A stretch of 63,659 nt of DNA, filler included. It is 7 parts of 7 records of this genome, joined end to end, with 100 filler letters (N's around TTAATTAATTAA, not from the genome) between each part and the next. Parts side by side here need not be neighbours in the genome. Positions count along the whole stretch, not along the records: positions 22,443 to 34,394 come from SRR31147125_15383; 6 more parts are not named here. One strand, given 5' to 3'. Below are positions 6,895-36,161 of the stretch, one piece after another. The notes below the pieces were generated by a model. That model was not told the DNA's origin and ran no database searches. It was given only the letters and a program-made list of their open reading frames with translations. The position numbers and the translations under genes were made by a program. Within the stretch, counting starts at the first letter, position 1, and each line of letters starts with the position of its first letter.

Positions 6895-6994
6895 NNNNNN
6901 NNNNNNNNNNNNNNNNNNNNNNNNNNNNNNNNNNNNNNTTAATTAATTAANNNNNNNNNNNNNNNNNNNNNNNNNNNNNNNNNNNNNNNNNNNN
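6895..6994. other. Artificial contig spacer
   Basis: N44-TTAATTAATTAA-N44 (stops in all six frames). Confidence 0.98.
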
Positions 6995-13480: not shown

Positions 13481-13631
13481 CAAAGATGAAACATCGAGTT
13501 CGATACGGGAAATGCCATTCATAAAGAACGACGACTTTCCACAACATAAACAATATTCTTTTCATTAATAAAATTAAAATTTTCGAGGTAATATCGTTTA
13601 TTTGCTTATTGTAGCATAGAATAAAATCTTG

Positions 13632-13817
13632 ATAAATTTTTTGGTGTCCTATTGACATAGGGAATTCCGCGAAATTCGGAAGCACTCCCGGTGCTGTGAT
13701 GGGGTACGAAAGATGCTATATCCGGACAGGATGAAATGTCACTGTTCCATATTGTGGGATGGGAAGGCGCATCGAGTAGGTTAATCCCAAAGCCAGAATA
13801 CCTGCCAAAAAATCTAT
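13632..13817 (+). ncRNA. Cobalamin riboswitch
   Basis: P1 TTTTTTGG/CCAAAAAA; AGGGAA.TCCGCGAAATTCGGA..CACTCCCG..GCTGT; CACTG..GGGAAGG; AGCCAGAATACCTGCC B12 box; upstream of a B12-independent RNR. Confidence 0.92.
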
Positions 13818-13874
13818 GATGTCTGGTTACGTGGAATAACCAGCCCGTATTTTGAGGTCAAGAAAACAGGGTGC

Positions 13875-22697: not shown

Positions 22698-23240
22698 GAA
22701 CATACCGGAAATCGCCGGGAAGATATGGGCGGTCATTAAGAAAAACAAGTTTGTGATGATCGTACTCGCCATTGGGCTGGTGCTCATTTTGCTGCCGACC
22801 GGGTCGCGCAGCGATAAAGTAGAGGCGCAGGCCGAAGAAACGCCGTCCGTTTCGTTTTCGCTCAGCGAACAGGAAGAACGCATCGCCGCGGCGCTGTCAA
22901 AGATCGATGGGGCGGGTCAAGTGACCGTCGTCCTGACGCTTAAAAGCGGCGCGGAACAGATACTGGCTACCGACGAGAGCTCGTCCAGCAGCGCCAGGGG
23001 GAAGGGGAGTCGGCAGAGAACAGCACGGAGACAAAAAGTACAACCGTTATCATCTCTGCCGGCAGCTCTGTGGAAAACCCCGTAACGCTCAAGACCTTAT
23101 ACCCCGAGTATCTCGGCGCGCTTGTTGTCTGTGCAGGTGCGGATAACCCGACGGTGAAGTATCAGCTCATTCAGGCTGTTGCGGGCCTGACCGGGCTTGG
23201 TACAGACAAGATTGTCGTAACAAAAATGAATGAATCTTGA
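22690..23240 (+). CDS. spoIIIAG: Stage III sporulation protein AG (frameshift near 22997-23007)
   Basis: LSKIDGAGQVTVVLT, then in the shifted frame YPEYLGALVVCAGADNP..KIVVTKM. Confidence 0.85.
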
Positions 23241-24476: not shown

Positions 24477-24929
24477 ATGACCAGGACAGCGGCCAGAGAA
24501 CTGGCGGTCAGGCTCTGTTACGGCCTATCAGAAAATCCGAGAAATCCGGACGAATTGCTCGGCGAAACATTTGATGAAGAATATTACGCGACCTTTGCTG
24601 ATGAGGATGAGCTTTATAAGAGCTATCCGGATAAAAAGCAGCTGGAGTATATCGGCCGCGTTGTCCGGGGAATCGCCGGGCACGCCGCAGAGCTCGACGG
24701 CTATATCGACAAATACGCCGTCGGCTGGAAATTCGGACATATTTCACGAACGGCGGTGGCCATATTGAAAACGGCCATGTTCGAGGTTTTGTATATGCCG
24801 GAGGTGCCCGATAAGGCGGCCATCAACGAGGCGGTTGAGATTGCCAAGCGATACGAACAGCCTGAAACAGTAAAATTTATCAACGGTGTCTTAGGCAGCT
24901 TTGTAAGAAATGAAGTGACATTCGCGTGA
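24477..24929 (+). CDS. nusB: Transcription antitermination factor NusB
   Basis: R..ARE.A, AINEAVEIAK.Y, FINGVLG. Confidence 0.95.
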   Translation: MTRTAARELAVRLCYGLSENPRNPDELLGETFDEEYYATFADEDELYKSYPDKKQLEYIGRVVRGIAGHAAELDGYIDKYAVGWKFGHISRTAVAILKTAMFEVLYMPEVPDKAAINEAVEIAKRYEQPETVKFINGVLGSFVRNEVTFA

Positions 24930-25857
24930 AAAAAGCGGCGATTTCCTTTGATACAAGCAATTACACGACAAGCTGCGCCGTTTTCGACGGCGAAGCCGGT
25001 GAGAATACCGGACGTCTTCTGGAGGTCGAGCCGGGTCGTCTCGGCCTGCGCCAGTCAGACGCGCTGTTTTTGCACGTTAAAAATCTGCCATCTGTTTTTT
25101 CGGAGCTGACACAACCGGATACGGTTCTGGCCGTCGGCGCGAGCACGAAGCCACGCGAGACGGCGGATTCGTACATGCCGTGCTTTTTGGCCGGCAAATC
25201 GCACGGGGCCGTTCTGGCGCGCTCAATGGGCGTGCCTTTTTTGAGTTTTCCCACCAACAGGGCCATATCGCTGCGGCAGCCTGGTCCGCCGGCCGGTTGG
25301 ATCTTCTGGACAAGCCGCACATCGCCTGGCACCTGTCCGGCGGCACGACGGAGCTTTTATTTGTCCGGCCGGACGGCTGCGCCGTCCGCTGCGAGATCAT
25401 CGGCGGCACGACGGATATCTCCGCCGGCCAGCTGATTGACCGGGCCGGCGGCCTTCTGGGCTTGAAGTTCCCGTCAGGGCGCGAGCTTGATACGCTTGCA
25501 AATCAGGCGCACGGCGGCGACTTTTACAAACCGAAAATTAACGATTTAACCTTTTCGCTGTCCGGCGTGGAGCATAAAATGAAGCAATTGGCCGAGGCGC
25601 GCGCGACCGGGCCGGAGCTGGCTTATTTTACGGTGATGTCCATTGTCCGCGCCGTCGGTGACGTGACGGAACGGGCGCGGCAGACATACGGCGACGTACC
25701 GGTGCTCTTTACCGGGGGCGTTGCGTGCAATTCTCTTTTGCGGCGGGAAATATCCGGCGGCTATTTTGCCGCGCCGCAGTGCTCGGCCGACAACGCGCTC
25801 GGCGTGGCTATTCTTACATACAGGGCGGTAACAACCGATGGAACAACGAATATTTAA
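24926..25857 (+). CDS. TsaD/Kae1-like (peptidase M22) paralogue (frameshift at 25237-25242)
   Basis: FDTSNYTTS, SHQQGH, HLSGGTT, D..AGQLIDR, GGVA.N, DNA motifs split over two frames. Confidence 0.85.
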
Positions 25858-27672: not shown

Positions 27673-27779
27673 TTGCTATACGGCAGCTTCCTGGATTAGA
27701 GTGGATGCTGCACGTTATATTAAAGCGGACGGCCAATAGCCGTCTCGGAGAAGAATTTAGTAATGTCAGGGTTTTGCTT

Positions 27780-28256
27780 ATGACGCTTCCCACACGAAAA
27801 CAAATACGCTTAACCGATTATGATTATAGTCAAAATGGTGCATATTTCATTACAATATGCACCAAAAATAGAGAACTAACACTGTGGGCCAACACCGTAG
27901 GGACGGCCATTGGCCGTCCGCTTTTGTCGGGATATGGATCCATTACGAAGGCTGCAGTTAAAAACATAAGCGCAATATACTCTAATGTTTGTGTCGATAA
28001 ATACGTTATTATGCCAAATCATGTTCATTTGCCTATCTTATTATCAAGGGATAGCGGACGGCCAATGGCCGTCCCTACGATATCCCGCATCATTAATCAA
28101 TTCAAAGGATATGCAAGTAAGCAAGCTGGATTGTCATTGTGGCAGGCTCGGTATTACGAGCACGTAATCCGTAATGAACAAGATTATCTATCAATATGGA
28201 ATTACATCGACACAAATCCCGCCAAATGGGCAGAAGACGAATACCATAAAGTGTAG
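27780..28256 (+). mobile_element. REP-associated tyrosine transposase (IS200/Y1 family, RAYT-like)
   Basis: RK.IRL..YDYS..GAYFITICT, HUH motif MPNHVH, WQ..YYEHVIR, YIDTNP. Confidence 0.92.
27897..28078. repeat. Inverted pair of GTAG-REPs inside the transposase ORF
   Basis: GTAGGGACGGCCATTGGCCGTCCGC (27897-27921) and its exact reverse complement (28054-28078); degenerate copies at 27725-27745 and 28253-28276. Confidence 0.88.
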
Positions 28257-28548: not shown

Positions 28549-29430
28549 ATGTTAAAAGAGGAATTCGACCGCGCGTACGGCGAGAGCCGCGCCCTTGTCG
28601 AAAAGCAGCTGGAACAGTATTTTCAGCGCGCGCCCAAAAGCGACCTGACCGAAGCGATGCGCTACAGCGTCATGGCCGGCGGCAAGCGCATCCGGCCTGT
28701 CATCGTCCTGGAGTTTTGCAGGGCTGCCGGCGGGAATCCGGAAAAGGCCGCGCCGGCGGCCGCGGCCGTTGAGATGCTGCATACGTATTCTCTCATCCAT
28801 GACGACCTGCCCTGTATGGACGACGACGCGCTGCGCCGGGGAAAGCCCACGAACCATATTGTTTTCGGCGAATGTATCGCAACGCTGGCGGGTGACGCGC
28901 TCCAGGCTGAAGCCTTTGGCCTGCTGCTCGGCTCGGACCTGTCGGCAGACCGCGTTGTGACAATGGGCAGGCTTTTGGCAAAAGCAGCCGGGACGGATGG
29001 CATTTGTCTTGGTCAGGCGCTTGATATGGAGAGCGAATCGCGCAAGCTGACGTATGAGGAGATATCGGGCATCCACGCGCTGAAAACGGCGTCCATGCTG
29101 ATGGCGTCGGCCCAGATTGGAGTAGCCGCTGCCGGCGGGAGCGAGGCGCAGATGAAAGCCGCGCTGGATTACGCGGCGGCGCTCGGGCTCGCGTTTCAGA
29201 TTCGCGACGACGTTTTGGACGTCACAGGCCAGACGGACGAGCTCGGCAAGCCCGCCGGATCGGACGAGGCCAATAGCAAATCGACATTTGTGACGCTTTT
29301 CGGCGTGGAGGAATGCCGGCGCATTATCCGGGAAAAGACGCAGCAGGCCGTTTTATCGCTTGCGGGACACTTTGCGAATACGGGATTTCTTGAAACCCTT
29401 GCCAGAATTCTGGAAGAAAGAAAGTATTGA
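28549..29430 (+). CDS. ispA: Farnesyl-diphosphate synthase (geranyltranstransferase)
   Basis: GGKRIRP, IHDDLPCMD, FQIRDD.LD, GK..GSD. Confidence 0.95.
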   Translation: MLKEEFDRAYGESRALVEKQLEQYFQRAPKSDLTEAMRYSVMAGGKRIRPVIVLEFCRAAGGNPEKAAPAAAAVEMLHTYSLIHDDLPCMDDDALRRGKPTNHIVFGECIATLAGDALQAEAFGLLLGSDLSADRVVTMGRLLAKAAGTDGICLGQALDMESESRKLTYEEISGIHALKTASMLMASAQIGVAAAGGSEAQMKAALDYAAALGLAFQIRDDVLDVTGQTDELGKPAGSDEANSKSTFVTLFGVEECRRIIREKTQQAVLSLAGHFANTGFLETLARILEERKY

Positions 29431-29455
29431 TAAATTGGTATTTTCTTGTTAATAT
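29427..29455 (+). promoter_or_regulatory. Sigma-A-type promoter for the OLE RNA
   Basis: TTGATA (29427-32), 17 nt, TAATAT (29450-55) with extended TG; predicted start ~29462, just before the OLE P1 stem. Confidence 0.6.
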
Positions 29456-29463
29456 AGAGTTTA

Positions 29464-30107
29464 CAGCGGCGCAGTATCCTAGTCAGATCTGCCGTCTCCC
29501 AGGAAGGGCCTAAAAATCCTTTGAAGGGCACACCTGCGAAACTCCTTGTGTTTGCTTTGAACGCCCAGTTTGGGGTGGATGCTGGGGGGAAGCGCGGAAT
29601 GCCGCGCTTGCATACTCAGGGCGGCCTCCAACGGCATGGAGACCCCGACCCTGTTTATGCGGAGACCTGTTTTCGTGCTTTGTCGTGCTCATACGCTGAG
29701 CGCGGTCCTTGTACGGGACAGGATTGAACCTGCATTGCGGTGCATTGGCTAAACGTCGTGCGCTGTGTGCAGAGTAGCCTGCCTTGAGTGGGACCTGCGG
29801 ATAGGGGATTAAATGTTCGGCGTTGTGGCCACAGCACCGGGCGCTATTGCCCCTTGAAATATTTCCTGCAAAAGAGGCTAAGAGACGGCTTGACTGTCAG
29901 TGGAAAACACCTAGGCTGTTCGGGGAGAACCTGTCCCCGTGACAGGATGGGGATTGCAGTGCGGACTAAGTGGCAATCGGGCAGCGACGACGGCAACGCG
30001 TCGAACGCGGCTTTAAAGGGAAACCGCCTGATCGGCAACGAGGGGTAGCTGCGGGGGAAATCCAGCCCGTACCTAAGCCGTAAGATTTACTCAGCTTGTC
30101 GCCGCTG
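29464..30107 (+). ncRNA. ole: OLE RNA (ornate large extremophilic RNA)
   Basis: 644-nt GC-rich interval with no credible ORF, closed by CAGCGGCG/CGCCGCTG; OLE-like tracts CAGTATCCTAGTCAG, GGGCCTAAAAATCC, GCAGAGTAGCCTGCCTTGAG, GGACTAAGTGG, AAAGGGAAACCGCC, CTAAGCCGTAA; canonical ispA-ole-oapA-dxs-tlyA-nadK context. Confidence 0.92.
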
Positions 30108-30158
30108 CATTAAAAAGCAGAGTGAACATCATAATTTAATTTCTGGTGTTTTTAAATA

Positions 30159-30728
30159 ATGAAGACAAAAACAAGCCCAAGATGGGTTATAAAAATTACC
30201 ATTATAAGCATTATCATATCCATGACACTCGTGCTGGCAACCTCGACCGTATTGGGGAGCCTCGGTTATGTCATGGCATTTGTGGTTTTAGCCGTATTCA
30301 TCCTGCTCGGCATCGCGTTTGACGTCATTGGCGTGTCTGTTACAGCGGCGTCTGTGGCGCCGTTTCATTCGATGGCCGCGCATAAGGAGCGCGGCGCGGC
30401 AGAGGCCATCCGGCTCATTCGTAACGCCGAGAAGGTTGCCAGCATCTGCAACGACGTCGTCGGTGATATTTCAGGCATTATCAGCGGCGCGACCTCCGCG
30501 CTTATCGTTACTAAGCTCGTCAGTGATTTTTCGCTGCCGAACCTTATCATGCAGCTTATCATATCCGGTCTCGTGACAGGGGCCACTGTCGGCGGCAAGG
30601 CCGCGGGCAAGGCGCTGGCGATTAATAACAGTACAAAAATTGTGCTGGACGCCGGCAAGCTGATCAGCTTTTTAAAAGGCTATTTGGAAAAAAATGAGGG
30701 TATCTATTGGAATTACTGGACCGTTTAA
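30159..30728 (+). CDS. oapA: OLE-associated membrane protein A (CNNM/DUF21-like)
   Basis: Directly after OLE; 4 TM helices; GI.FD.IG, PFHSMAA, CNDVVGDISGIISG, TVGGKA.GK; true stop may be 30697. Confidence 0.9.
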   Translation: MKTKTSPRWVIKITIISIIISMTLVLATSTVLGSLGYVMAFVVLAVFILLGIAFDVIGVSVTAASVAPFHSMAAHKERGAAEAIRLIRNAEKVASICNDVVGDISGIISGATSALIVTKLVSDFSLPNLIMQLIISGLVTGATVGGKAAGKALAINNSTKIVLDAGKLISFLKGYLEKNEGIYWNYWTV

Positions 30729-32551
30729 ATTTACCCGGAGACATAAAGAACCTGAGCGACGCGGAGCTTGCCGCCCTGTGCAATGAGATCCGGCAGTTCA
30801 TGATCAGAAGCGTATCCAAAACCGGCGGCCATCTGGCGTCCAATCTCGGCGTGGTTGAGCTGACGGTTGCACTACATCGGGTGTTCGACACCTCAAAGGA
30901 TCGAGTCGTTTTCGACGTCGGACATCAAAGCTACGTACACAAGCTTTTAACAGGCCGGAAGGACCGTTTTGGCACGCTGCGGCAGTTTGGCGGCCTGTCC
31001 GGTTTTCCCAAGCCGACGGAATCCCAGCATGACGCCTTTATTGCCGGCCACGCGTCGGATTCTATTTCCGTAGCGCTCGGCATGGCCCGCGCGCGGACCA
31101 TCGGCCGTCGGGACTACAACGTCCTGTCCGTTATTGGCGACGGCGCGCTCACAGGAGGACTGTCGTACGAGGGCCTCAGTGATGCCGGGCAGAGCGGGGA
31201 GCCGCTTATTATTATCTTAAACGATAACGGCATGTCGATTACGCCCAATGTGGGCGGTATCGCGGCGTATCTGGCCCGTCAGCGTCTCAAGCCTTCCTAT
31301 ACGGCGTTTAAAAAGCGTTATCGGCGTTTTATGGAGAAATTCCCCGGCGGCCGCCATGTCTACCGGCTGACGCATGCCGTTAAAAGCGCTATTAAAGAAA
31401 CCATGCTGCACTGCAGCATGTTTGAGGAGATGGGCCTGCAGTACGCCGGTCCGATCGACGGGCATAACATTAAGCGTATGGTCGAGGCGCTTACCTGGGC
31501 CAAAGCCCTCGGGGAGCCGGTGCTCATCCATGTTATCACGCAAAAGGGAAAGGGCTATATCTACTCCGAGGACACGCCGGACCTGTATCACGGCGTATCG
31601 CCCTTTGACTATAAAAAAGGTATCATTTGCGGTGAGAACGCCTGCTTTTCAGCCGTTTTCGGCGAGGAACTGACGAGGCTGGCCCAGCAGGACTGGCGCG
31701 TTGTCGCCATCACGGCCGCTATGACGAGCGGCACGGGGCTGAGTCATTTTGCCGCCAAGTTTCCGGACCGTTTTTTTGATGTCGGCATTGCCGAGGGACA
31801 TGGCGCGTCGATGGCCGCGGGCTTGGCCGCGCAGGACTGCCTGCCGGTATTTGCCGTCTATTCGACGTTTCTGCAGCGGTCTTACGACATGCTGATTCAC
31901 GATATCGCATTGTCAAAGCTGCACGTCGTGCTGGCTGTTGACCGGGCGGGGCTCGTCGGCAGCGACGGCGAAACACATCAGGGTATCTTCGATGTCGGCT
32001 ATTTGTCGACCATCCCGGGTATGACAGTCTTTTGCCCGGCCAGCTACAATGAGCTGCGGGATATGCTTCGGCGCGCCGTATTCGGTACGGCGGGGCCCGT
32101 GGCCCTGCGCTATCCAAGAGGGGGCGAGGGACGCTATAGGGATGGCGGCGTATCGCCGTCAAAATGCGTCCGTACGGGCAAGGATCTGACGCTTGTGACC
32201 TACGGTGTCAACATTAACACAGCGCTCGATGCGGCCGACATTTTGATCGGACGCGGCATATCGGTTGAGATTATTAAGCTCGGCGTGATCCAGCCGCTGG
32301 ATTACAGCGAGGTGGACGCTTCCATTCAAAAAACAGGTCGGCTGCTTGTTTTGGAAGAGTGTGTGGCATCCGGCTGCGTTGGGCAAAGGCTGGCGCAGCA
32401 TGCCGCCGATCAATGCCCGGATCTGAGGAGAATCCGCCTTTTAAATCTCGGCAGTCAATTTATACCGCAGGGCAAGGTAGAACAGCTGCGCGCGGCTTAC
32501 GGTATCGACGCCGAGAGCGTCGTCCAGGCCGCCGAGGAGCTTTTACGATGA
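30707..32551 (+). CDS. dxs: 1-deoxy-D-xylulose-5-phosphate synthase
   Basis: GGHLASNLG, DVGHQ.Y, GDGA..G..LNDN, DRAG.VG.DG.THQG. Confidence 0.97.
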   Translation: MELLDRLNLPGDIKNLSDAELAALCNEIRQFMIRSVSKTGGHLASNLGVVELTVALHRVFDTSKDRVVFDVGHQSYVHKLLTGRKDRFGTLRQFGGLSGFPKPTESQHDAFIAGHASDSISVALGMARARTIGRRDYNVLSVIGDGALTGGLSYEGLSDAGQSGEPLIIILNDNGMSITPNVGGIAAYLARQRLKPSYTAFKKRYRRFMEKFPGGRHVYRLTHAVKSAIKETMLHCSMFEEMGLQYAGPIDGHNIKRMVEALTWAKALGEPVLIHVITQKGKGYIYSEDTPDLYHGVSPFDYKKGIICGENACFSAVFGEELTRLAQQDWRVVAITAAMTSGTGLSHFAAKFPDRFFDVGIAEGHGASMAAGLAAQDCLPVFAVYSTFLQRSYDMLIHDIALSKLHVVLAVDRAGLVGSDGETHQGIFDVGYLSTIPGMTVFCPASYNELRDMLRRAVFGTAGPVALRYPRGGEGRYRDGGVSPSKCVRTGKDLTLVTYGVNINTALDAADILIGRGISVEIIKLGVIQPLDYSEVDASIQKTGRLLVLEECVASGCVGQRLAQHAADQCPDLRRIRLLNLGSQFIPQGKVEQLRAAYGIDAESVVQAAEELLR

Positions 32552-34595: not shown

Positions 34596-36161
34596 ATGAA
34601 AGTCGGGATTCTTGGATTAATAAATGGGTCCATGAGTCACAATCGGATAGAGCAGATATATAGTTTTTTATTCAGGAAACAGTTTGTCAGTATCATGCCG
34701 CAGGCGGTCGCGGTCTGGTGCCGGCAGCTGGGACATAAGGTTTTTTATGCAACCTATTTTGGTCAGCAGGATCCAAAAAGTTTACTGCCAAATGATCTGG
34801 ATGTTGTTTTTATCTGCTCCTTTACTCAGGCCAGCGCTCTCTCCTATGCCCTGGCTAAGCTATATCGCAGGAAAAAGACCATAACAGTTCTGGGTGGACC
34901 TCATGCCAACTCCTTTCCCACGGATAGCCTGCGGTTTTTTGACTATGTGATTCAAGAATGCGATAAAGCTATTGTCAGGGATGTTTTGGGATCTGGTTTT
35001 GCTCGTCACACCATTGTCAGGAGCGATCGTCTTCTGACGGATTTGCCAGGCGTAGAAGAACGGCTTCCCGAAATTCTCAAATCAAGTTATACGGCGAGTC
35101 GACCACCGGTATTTAGCAATATTCCAGTTATGAGCAGTCTTGGATGTCCGTATAGCTGTGATTTCTGTGTTGACTGGAACAAATCTTATGTCTTTTTGCC
35201 AAAGGAACGACTCCGGGAAGATTTATTTTACATTTCGAAGAATTTCCCCAAAGTGACTATTGTTTTCCATGATCCGAACTTTGGTGTCCGTTTTGATCAG
35301 GTGCTGGATATTTTAGAAACCATACCTGAAAAAGACCGGAATCCATATGCCATGGGATGCTCCCTCTCAGTTCTCAAGGGTTCGCGATTATCGCGCCTGA
35401 AAAGGACAAATTGTATTTATGTAGGCCCGGGAGTGGAATCCTGGCAGGATTATGCCAATAAGGCGGCAACCGGTTTTGCTGAGGGACGGGAAAAACTGGA
35501 AAAAGTGGTGGCACATTTTAAAGAGTTGTATCCTTATGTCCCGAGCCTTGGCGCGTGTTTTATATTTGGTACGGATACGGACAAAGGAGATGATCCGATC
35601 CAGCTGACTAAAGATTTTATTCGTCAATTTCCTTATGTGTGGCCGGGAATAAATATCCCGACACCTTTTGGTGGTACGCTAATATATGAGCGTTATCTCA
35701 AGGAGGACAGGTTATTAAAATCCATACCGTTTCGGTTTTATTTTACACCTTATCTTGTGTTCCAGCTGAAACACTATAATCCCCTGGAGTACTATGAAAA
35801 GCTGATTGGATTACTATCCTATACGATATCTCTCAATATAATGACACGCCGCGTCTCAGGAACGCGTTGTTTCCCCATTAAAATAATACAGCTGCTGCGC
35901 ACCCTGGCTTTGCGGAACCAACTATCAGAGATGAGGCTTATTCATTATCAGCTCAAAACCGATAAGAACTTTCGGGCCTTCCATGAGGGTGACTCGAAAA
36001 GACTACCTGATTTTTACCGTCAACGACTTATAAAGAGTCTGGGAGCTTATGCCGAATTACTTTCGGAGGAGGATTTGACTCCAGTGCTGGAAGAAAATCG
36101 TATTGAGACCGGGTCAATACCTTCAGAGAAAGAAGCTGATGAATTCCGGCAAAGAAATTAA
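34596..36161 (+). CDS. B12-binding radical SAM protein
   Basis: VLGGPHA cobalamin-domain motif; GCPYSCDFC; F.D.NF; GVES. Confidence 0.88.
   Translation: MKVGILGLINGSMSHNRIEQIYSFLFRKQFVSIMPQAVAVWCRQLGHKVFYATYFGQQDPKSLLPNDLDVVFICSFTQASALSYALAKLYRRKKTITVLGGPHANSFPTDSLRFFDYVIQECDKAIVRDVLGSGFARHTIVRSDRLLTDLPGVEERLPEILKSSYTASRPPVFSNIPVMSSLGCPYSCDFCVDWNKSYVFLPKERLREDLFYISKNFPKVTIVFHDPNFGVRFDQVLDILETIPEKDRNPYAMGCSLSVLKGSRLSRLKRTNCIYVGPGVESWQDYANKAATGFAEGREKLEKVVAHFKELYPYVPSLGACFIFGTDTDKGDDPIQLTKDFIRQFPYVWPGINIPTPFGGTLIYERYLKEDRLLKSIPFRFYFTPYLVFQLKHYNPLEYYEKLIGLLSYTISLNIMTRRVSGTRCFPIKIIQLLRTLALRNQLSEMRLIHYQLKTDKNFRAFHEGDSKRLPDFYRQRLIKSLGAYAELLSEEDLTPVLEENRIETGSIPSEKEADEFRQRN

Follow-up and report, generated by a model that had tools for sequence, protein, structure and literature searches.

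An OLE RNA of a Sporobacter-like Oscillospiraceae bacterium with a predicted lineage-specific hairpin in place of the J5/6 k-turn linker

OLE is a well-known class of large bacterial RNA that acts at the cell membrane together with the protein OapA. In Bacillota, 2,822 matches have been published, and the class is represented here by the RNA of Halalkalibacterium halodurans and by two RNAs resolved by cryo-EM, from Clostridium acetobutylicum (PDB 9MCW) and C. botulinum (PDB 9LCR). Publications are cited by PMC accession. In H. halodurans, co-transcription of ole and processing of its 3' end have been described, a site for bS21 lies in the RNA (PMC12054373), and J5/6 together with J4a/5 forms k-turn 1a, the mapped site of the protein OapC (PMC9723947). 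Cryo-EM models instead show a k-turn formed with J6/7 by three G-A pairs, termed k-turn 1b (PMC12286853, PMC12412911), and a further study treats k-turns 1a and 1b as real alternatives (PMC12054373). K-turn 1a is not universal to the OLE class: about 45% of the species with an OLE also have OapC (PMC11332333), and the k-turn in the cryo-EM models is 1b. L7Ae-type proteins contact positions L1 and L2 of a k-turn and hydrogen-bond to the L1 guanine (PMC3884654).

The window analysed here, a stretch of 63,659 nt, consists of seven contigs joined by N spacers starting at 6895, 22343, 34395, 41928, 49194 and 55430. The OLE-bearing contig (22443-34394, 11,952 nt) has 55% GC; the remaining six have 33-42% GC and therefore probably come from different organisms, as in a mixed bin or an unbinned assembly. 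A cobalamin riboswitch (13625-13823, 86.4 bits) lies on a different contig, and a B12-binding radical SAM protein is encoded at 34596-36161 on the contig that adjoins the OLE-bearing one. The latter carries, in order, spoIIIAH, asp23, nusB, a TsaD-like gene, xseA, a GNAT gene, an IS200-like transposase gene, xseB, ispA, the OLE RNA, oapA, dxs, an S4/FtsJ methyltransferase gene and an NAD kinase gene. Its closest relative is an uncultured Sporobacter chromosome (L001/G001), with 93% identity in OapA and 91% in DNA over 6.1 kb; judged by these matches, the host is a Sporobacter-like Oscillospiraceae bacterium, and oapA thus stands directly downstream of the RNA in a member of the Bacillota, as in the OLE class at large.

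Comparison with the Sporobacter chromosome revealed one-base gaps at 23000, 25240 and 30670, in or beside homopolymer runs, which split or shift the gene in the spoIIIAG position, the TsaD-like gene and oapA. These gaps are likely assembly errors, so that apparent pseudogenes on this contig should be distrusted. The TsaD/Kae1-like gene (24926-25857), between nusB and xseA, reads in two frames owing to its gap. The IS200-like (Y1) transposase ORF (27705-28256) matches PF01797 weakly, below the cut-off; three 21-nt palindromic REP-like copies lie inside or beside it, and the insertion is missing from L001 at this place.

Table 1. Features of the ole-oapA region, with positions counted along the window. 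Stem names P1-P15 were transferred from the texts of published papers to the Rfam alignment; the labels P11 and P12 are our own assignment.
Feature	Positions	Strand	Basis
ispA, farnesyl diphosphate synthase, upstream neighbour	28549..29430	+	NCBIfam NF045485, 329.9 bits (cut-off 275); PF00348
Candidate sigma-A promoter of ole, TTGATA-17-TAATAT, TG before the -10	29427..29455	+	9/12 consensus positions; consensus match only
OLE RNA, full-length type, with extra hairpin	29464..30107	+	RF01071; 7 mismatches in 644 nt against Sporobacter L001
A-rich L4 loop	29509..29519	+	Motif in 71/72 extracted OLEs; dimer bridge in cryo-EM models (PMC12265935)
J4a/5, bulged k-turn strand: C, bulge UGC (canonical GAU), GAA	29532..29541	+	C and GAA in 111/111 parsed OLEs
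L5 loop, putative kissing partner of L6 (29629-29638)	29561..29569	+	L5 and L6 motifs each in 72/72 extracted OLEs
Lineage-specific 8-bp hairpin replacing J5/6 UUAA (non-bulged k-turn 1a strand)	29590..29609	+	Insertion relative to the Rfam model; MFE and centroid folds
P6, base extended by Watson-Crick pairs, with CCUCC anti-SD-like tract (bS21 region)	29610..29660	+	Extension pairs 1-3 in 42/42 distinct arm pairs
J6/7 GGAG, non-bulged k-turn 1b strand	29659..29667	+	72/72 extracted OLEs; cryo-EM assignment (PMC12286853, PMC12412911)
Self-complementary L9 loop (putative dimer bridge)	29826..29831	+	Motif in 60/72
P13: single-nucleotide bulge, two pairs, GCAA tetraloop	29985..30003	+	Fold; OapB-binding determinants per PMC7936274
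oapA as read, 189 aa	30159..30728	+	Real gene most likely ends at TGA 30695-30697 (179 aa)
dxs, 1-deoxy-D-xylulose-5-phosphate synthase, downstream neighbour	30707..32551	+	TIGR00204, 664.6 bits (cut-off 465.95)

We identify the RNA, with near certainty, as a full-length OLE and the product of the adjacent gene as OapA. The Rfam model RF01071 was matched by cmscan over all 616 model positions at 29450-30121 with E 1.6e-114 and 401.7 bits, against a gathering threshold of 50 (the 390-bit limit given in PMC11332333 belongs to a different OLE model). P7, P8 and P9 were all aligned to the model, as expected of the full-length type, and the P7 and P8 loops are longer. An earlier, sequence-only reading of the window had proposed an OLE RNA of 644 nt, closed by an 8-bp stem, and had noted that OLE RNAs of Firmicutes sit in the ispA-dxs interval; the proposal held: the terminal stem pairs CAGCGGCG (29464-29471) with CGCCGCTG (30100-30107) around 644 nt, the region 29464-30110 folds at -277.2 kcal/mol (z -3.53, with 0 of 20 shuffles equally stable), and ispA and dxs flank ole-oapA (Table 1). 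ORFs overlapping the 644-nt region are 60-111 aa long. Amongst 80 fetched loci of relatives, an OLE was found directly upstream of the oapA homologue in all 19 that were scanned, 17 of them full-length at 386-505 bits and two clipped by the end of the locus. The description of this copy as divergent was overstated, as its score falls inside the range of the 17 full-length neighbours. Two unusually long OLEs were noted by their Rfam bounds, at L015:226-1006 (781 nt) and L004:3133-3841 (709 nt).

The putative dimerisation loops L4, L5-L6 and L9 and the predicted OapB site in P13 are all recognisable in the RNA (Table 1), and the GNRA loop of P13 is present in 71 of the 72 extracted OLEs. P13 was also one of two hairpins that the sequence-only reading had offered as examples. 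The other, CCTGTC/GACAGG (29930-29946), exists in the sequence and fails as a conserved element: in the Rfam alignment the partner of GACAGG is a distant segment at the 3' end, and in two relatives (L006 and L010) both long-range sides are altered together while the local stem is broken. The true local hairpin of that region is at 29921-29939.

Upstream of the RNA, the putative promoter overlaps the ispA stop codon, and 8 nt separate its end from the P1 stem; a search 3' of the OLE RNA found no intrinsic terminator on the + strand. A promoter-like site combined with the lack of a + strand terminator fits co-transcription of ole, oapA and dxs followed by 3' processing, as in H. halodurans. Additional information about the transcript came from assembled RNA libraries. 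In metatranscriptome X11, contigs cover 29466-30059, one of them identical over 145 nt, and none covers 29250-29465 or 30060-30437; in X13, one contig of depth 2 is identical over 261 nt across the hairpin. Both are mixed-community contig sets from which strand and level are not derivable, and they contain small shares of the window that say nothing on habitat. The coverage in X11 of the RNA without its flanks fits an abundant discrete RNA and is a weak hint of such an OLE transcript.

The oapA ORF begins 52 nt 3' of the OLE terminal stem and encodes one DxxxD motif (D99-D103), which is named as distinctive of OapA in PMC11332333, and five GxxxG motifs. Both aspartates are invariant in 18 of 18 aligned OapA sequences and correspond to D100/D104 of H. 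halodurans OapA (supplement of PMC12286853), where the surrounding residues, compared by eye, are CNDVIGD, against CNDVVGD here. The AlphaFold2 model is all-helical and of modest confidence (pLDDT 66.9), with long helices at 7-30, 35-63, 90-122 and 126-156. The initial description was of a four-TM protein with DxxxD and GxxxG motifs. The motifs are present; on the Kyte-Doolittle scale, strong hydrophobicity (to 2.6) is confined to the first two segments, with mild values (to 1.4) in those that follow.

The best fold matches of the model were CorB 7M1U (Z 11.6, rmsd 3.0, 131 aligned) and CorC 7CFG (Z 11.0, rmsd 3.1, 121 aligned), with unrelated bundles at Z 8.2 or below, although Z values of 11-12 are less than the caution level of the comparison tool for helical bundles. 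Foldseek placed CNNM proteins at ranks 1-5 (best E 0.035, none at E 0.001 or better), and the top match of the fold comparison is also the one reported for H. halodurans OapA (PMC11332333). At the sequence level, comparison with solved structures gave nothing below E 0.2, and Pfam and NCBIfam scans of the OapA in the window found no family and no PF01595 match. Several of the 1,138 OapA homologues that were found carry PF01595, and the OapA proteins of relatives score 19.5-27.9 bits on this family, under its cut-off of 28.4. With its DxxxD motif, and with a weak CNNM/DUF21 likeness (fold matches and PF01595 scores of relatives) without CBS or CorC domains, the protein has the features of OapA. 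In MpfA/CorB/CorC proteins, a CNNM domain that passes the Pfam cut-off precedes tandem CBS and CorC domains; this arrangement is absent from the 179-189 aa encoded here. The identification of the downstream protein as OapA in the sequence-only reading is thus borne out by the DxxxD motif, the CNNM-like fold and the OLE upstream in 19 of 19 scanned loci of relatives.

The 189-aa length of OapA is best regarded as an artefact because a T run near 30670 is one base short relative to L001, the sole in-gene indel in 6.1 kb, and the base is present in contigs of runs X1 and X2 (X1 is possibly the source sample and hence not independent; X2 is a separate study). The closest OapA homologues are 176-181 aa long. 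Most likely, the last ~12 residues as read are a frameshift product, the real protein has 179 aa with a basic tail, and the corrected oapA does not overlap dxs. A genuine C-terminal extension overlapping dxs is rejected on the basis of the L001 indel and the X1 and X2 contigs.

The main departure of this OLE from the described members of the class is found at the junction of P5 and P6, where the Rfam alignment shows a 19-nt insertion. Amongst 69 OLEs parsed from the window and 80 OapA-neighbour loci, a sample picked by likeness to the OapA of the window and hence not a family frequency, 63 have a hairpin replacing the UUAA of J5/6 and 6 are canonical; nine of the loci start inside the RNA and were left out of this count. 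With three further OLEs read by hand, which also have the hairpin, the count becomes 66 of 72 readable Oscillospiraceae-type OLEs. By comparison, an even sample of Clostridia contained OLE in 70 of 150 scored genomes, and the hairpin was found in 0 of 69 of these (G001 left out; read in batches of 42, 13 and 14). Amongst 301 Oscillospiraceae genomes, a hairpin-type pattern too loose to serve as a count gave 82 matches, mostly chance, about two dozen of which were OLE-hairpin-like by eye, and a strict canonical pattern was found in 34, with 0 in the control. Judging from these genome sequences, canonical and hairpin OLE types are both common in Oscillospiraceae.

The 54 distinct hairpins have no conserved loop and range from 14 to 56 nt, the longest form being that of L004. 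The first four pairs can form in all 54; pair 1 is A-U in 54/54, and at pair 2, 28 of the 54 have G-C and the other 26 A-U, against a shuffle mean of 40.6 and a maximum of 46/54, counts of covariation that, like those of co-occurrence, are inflated by related sequences. All hairpins share a GA at their foot, and the one in the window has a predicted stability of -13.8 kcal/mol. Additionally, new regular pairs are formed at the base of P6 in all 42 distinct arm pairs. From these patterns we are confident that, in part of the Oscillospiraceae, a covarying hairpin replaces the J5/6 linker and regular pairs close the base of P6.

Consequences for the k-turn were followed in the same OLE sequences. 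The J5/6 strand of k-turn 1a is missing from the RNA of the window, its place being taken by the hairpin, and the elements of k-turn 1b are present; C-NNN-GAA occurs in every one of the 111 parsed OLEs, and GGAG in all 72 that were extracted. The second C-helix pair of the k-turn is a C-A mismatch in the group of the window (11/34), so that the C helix may be weak there. The bulge reads GAU in all 47 canonical OLEs and in 9 of 63 hairpin OLEs (2/34 in the clade of the window and 7/29 in its sister clade). In the sister clade it is UGU in 22 of 29, with loss of the L1 guanine, which weakened the use of that clade as proof of OapC binding at k-turn 1b, as this guanine is lost there too.

For the partner proteins, PF01248 proved too insensitive to detect oapC (the YlxQ paralogue was missed in 2 of 5 genomes), and a YbxF query from Papillibacter cinnamivorans (best PDB match B. 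subtilis YbxF 3V7E, E 5e-14) was used together with synteny at rpsL. The query was positive in 31 of the 80 genomes of relatives. In a quick OapA tree (111 rows, 174 columns), the clade of the window comprises 42 rows (SH-aLRT 93, not starred) and the sister hairpin clade 31 rows (92). Two loci from assemblies labelled Bacteroidaceae (L066) and Agathobacter (L079) fall in the Oscillospiraceae clade of this tree and are probably mis-binned contigs. The YbxF query gave no ybxF/oapC match in any of the 41 genomes from the clade of the window, all of them relatives and mostly incomplete MAGs; it was positive in 24 of 31 genomes of the sister hairpin clade and in 7 of the 8 remaining Oscillospiraceae-side rows. 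At rpsL, none of the 17 own-clade loci had a ybxF match upstream, and all 9 loci from outside the clade had one. Directly upstream of rpsL, 13 of the 17 own-clade loci have a large ORF that we take, from its motifs, to be rpoC; a contig edge cuts off one locus, and another has a different neighbour. Thus, in the genomes that were compared, the lineage of the window seems to have lost oapC. Strict coupling between the hairpin and this loss is rejected by the 24 of 31 sister-clade hairpin genomes that keep ybxF.

The sequence-only reading had called for a search for oapB and oapC, and in relatives the two gave opposite answers. In each of the 5 genomes tested, map and infA enclose an OapB-like ORF, that of G001 matching OapB 7K9B with E 6e-6, and oapC was not found in the own-clade genomes as described above. 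The gene rpsU was present in 5 of 5 genomes tested, and a separate MpfA-sized CNNM protein (450-485 aa, PF01595 at ~180 bits) in 4 of 5, a pattern of weak OapA against strong separate CNNM scores that is described in PMC11332333.

Altogether, these observations suggest a sequence of events by analogy with H. halodurans and the cryo-EM RNAs. Very probably, ole, oapA and dxs would be transcribed jointly from the promoter at the ispA end, and the RNA would be trimmed to about 644 nt; it would then dimerise through L4, L5-L6 and L9, be held at the membrane by OapA, and bind OapB at P13 and probably bS21 at P6. What the particle would do is a more tentative matter. By analogy, and with slightly less than even confidence, OLE may be a regulatory module of OapA, the latter being a CNNM/CorC-like transporter of divalent cations (Mg2+) that lacks the CBS/CorC domains of MpfA, and OLE-OapA would then couple membrane ion handling to the stress state. 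This agrees with published reports of OLE/MpfA anticorrelation and cross-rescue (PMC11332333, PMC12265935; in part as unpublished data there). Because an MpfA-type CNNM protein is kept, OapA need not be the Mg2+ exporter of Sporobacter.

For the junction itself, we favour, with a probability of roughly 0.55, the reading that the hairpin, with the closed P6 base, holds the P5/P6 junction in the form of the cryo-EM models, in which P6 is intact and the k-turn is 1b. The k-turn 1a switch would thereby be removed and OapC made dispensable; the protein-contacting bulge would then have drifted, and ybxF/oapC would have been lost in the clade of the window. The persistence of ybxF in most genomes of the sister clade counts against this reading, and, were the hairpin to melt, the invariant GA at its foot could still supply a strand of k-turn 1a. 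A stronger form of the reading, in which an RNA helix has replaced a protein partner that H. halodurans cannot do without, thereby permitting the loss of oapC, is doubtful, and we put it forward tentatively.

The reading that comes closest to competing with a fixed junction is that the hairpin is a neutral elaboration at a solvent-exposed joint, that OapC, where present, binds k-turn 1b, and that the loss of ybxF is unrelated. The variable length and unconserved loop of the hairpin, the variable P7 and P8 extensions of the same OLEs, the retention of ybxF in the sister clade and the occurrence of OapC in fewer than half of OLE-bearing species (PMC11332333) all agree with it. A neutral origin nevertheless seems unlikely to us, as the change is not a plain insertion: UUAA is removed, the P6 base is newly paired in every distinct arm pair, the first hairpin pair is always A-U, and the hairpin is accompanied by drift of a bulge that is invariant in canonical OLEs.

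Rather improbable is a second alternative, in which the OLE RNP is mainly a membrane-anchored hub for bS21, OapB and other proteins that relays stress by conformational switching, with OapA as its anchor rather than a working transporter and the hairpin as a new binding site or as a replacement switch alternating with a relic k-turn 1a. Both bS21 (PMC12054373) and OapC (PMC9723947) change the structure of H. halodurans OLE, the CCUCC tract in P6 and rpsU are retained, the GA at the hairpin foot is invariant and an MpfA-type transporter is present alongside, as a hub would lead one to expect. Yet the loop and length of the hairpin vary, unlike a protein site, its 6-10 GC-rich pairs would be costly to open, and OapA retains a CNNM-like fold with invariant acidic residues. 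That OLE is a ribozyme which OapA merely localises, as argued from its size, complexity and conservation (PMC11332333, PMC12265935) and compatible with the conserved tracts kept here, is quite improbable, catalytic activity not being reported in the portions of the OLE literature that were searched.

As to novelty, the OLE class, its OapA partner and the gene order are known, and the sequence-only reading overrated the novelty; neither the hairpin of this lineage nor the seeming loss of oapC nor the frameshift artefact in oapA figured in it. In the OLE literature text that was searched, which excludes published figures and the Stockholm alignments of PMC12054373, there is no mention of a J5/6 hairpin; a term look-up in the searched text of PMC10898510 had no matches, and the literature search returned no paper joining OLE RNA and Oscillospiraceae. 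The newness of the hairpin is conditional because the PMC12054373 alignments almost surely hold sequences of this type. In our judgement the hairpin is a lineage variant with good support, and it lies at a protein-binding site that is under dispute.

A further OLE copy adds little to the 2,822 published ones, given OLE in 70 of 150 sampled Clostridia genomes. On the OapC site and on switching, the biochemical mapping to k-turn 1a (PMC9723947) conflicts with the k-turn 1b of the cryo-EM work (PMC12286853). The variant is of modest importance for this question, as a lineage that replaces the 1a strand and keeps the 1b core is a natural test of it. Cultured members of the lineage, with and without ybxF, are Sporobacter termitidis and Brotocaccenecus cirricatena. 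If the helix did take over from the protein, the P5/P6 switch, a proposed regulatory device, would not be needed for core OLE function, and a pre-folded, OapC-independent OLE would be at hand for structural and reconstitution work.

Compared with the reference OLEs, the RNA of the window shares the terminal stem, L4, L5/L6, L9, P7, P8, the P13 bulge and GNRA loop, the k-turn 1b core and the ispA/oapA/dxs position. It differs in having an 8-bp hairpin for J5/6, a regularly paired P6 base, the bulge UGC rather than GAU, longer P7, P8 and P11 loops and a length of about 644 against about 600 nt, and in belonging to a clade in which oapC was not found. Its OapA resembles that of H. halodurans in the position of DxxxD, in GxxxG, in the basic C-terminal tail (179-aa form) and in the CNNM-like helical fold, and is about 20 residues shorter; unlike the distant CNNM relative MpfA (PF01595; PDB 7M1U, 7CFG), it is without CBS or CorC domains. 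OLE variants 1 (TANB77) and 2 (RF39) of Fernando and Breaker 2024 (PMC11332333) are likewise natural variants from lineages largely without OapC. As described there, they shorten or lose P7-P9 and often the OapB site, whereas the OLE described here has greater length, retains P7, P8 and P13 along with oapB, and is altered at J5/6.
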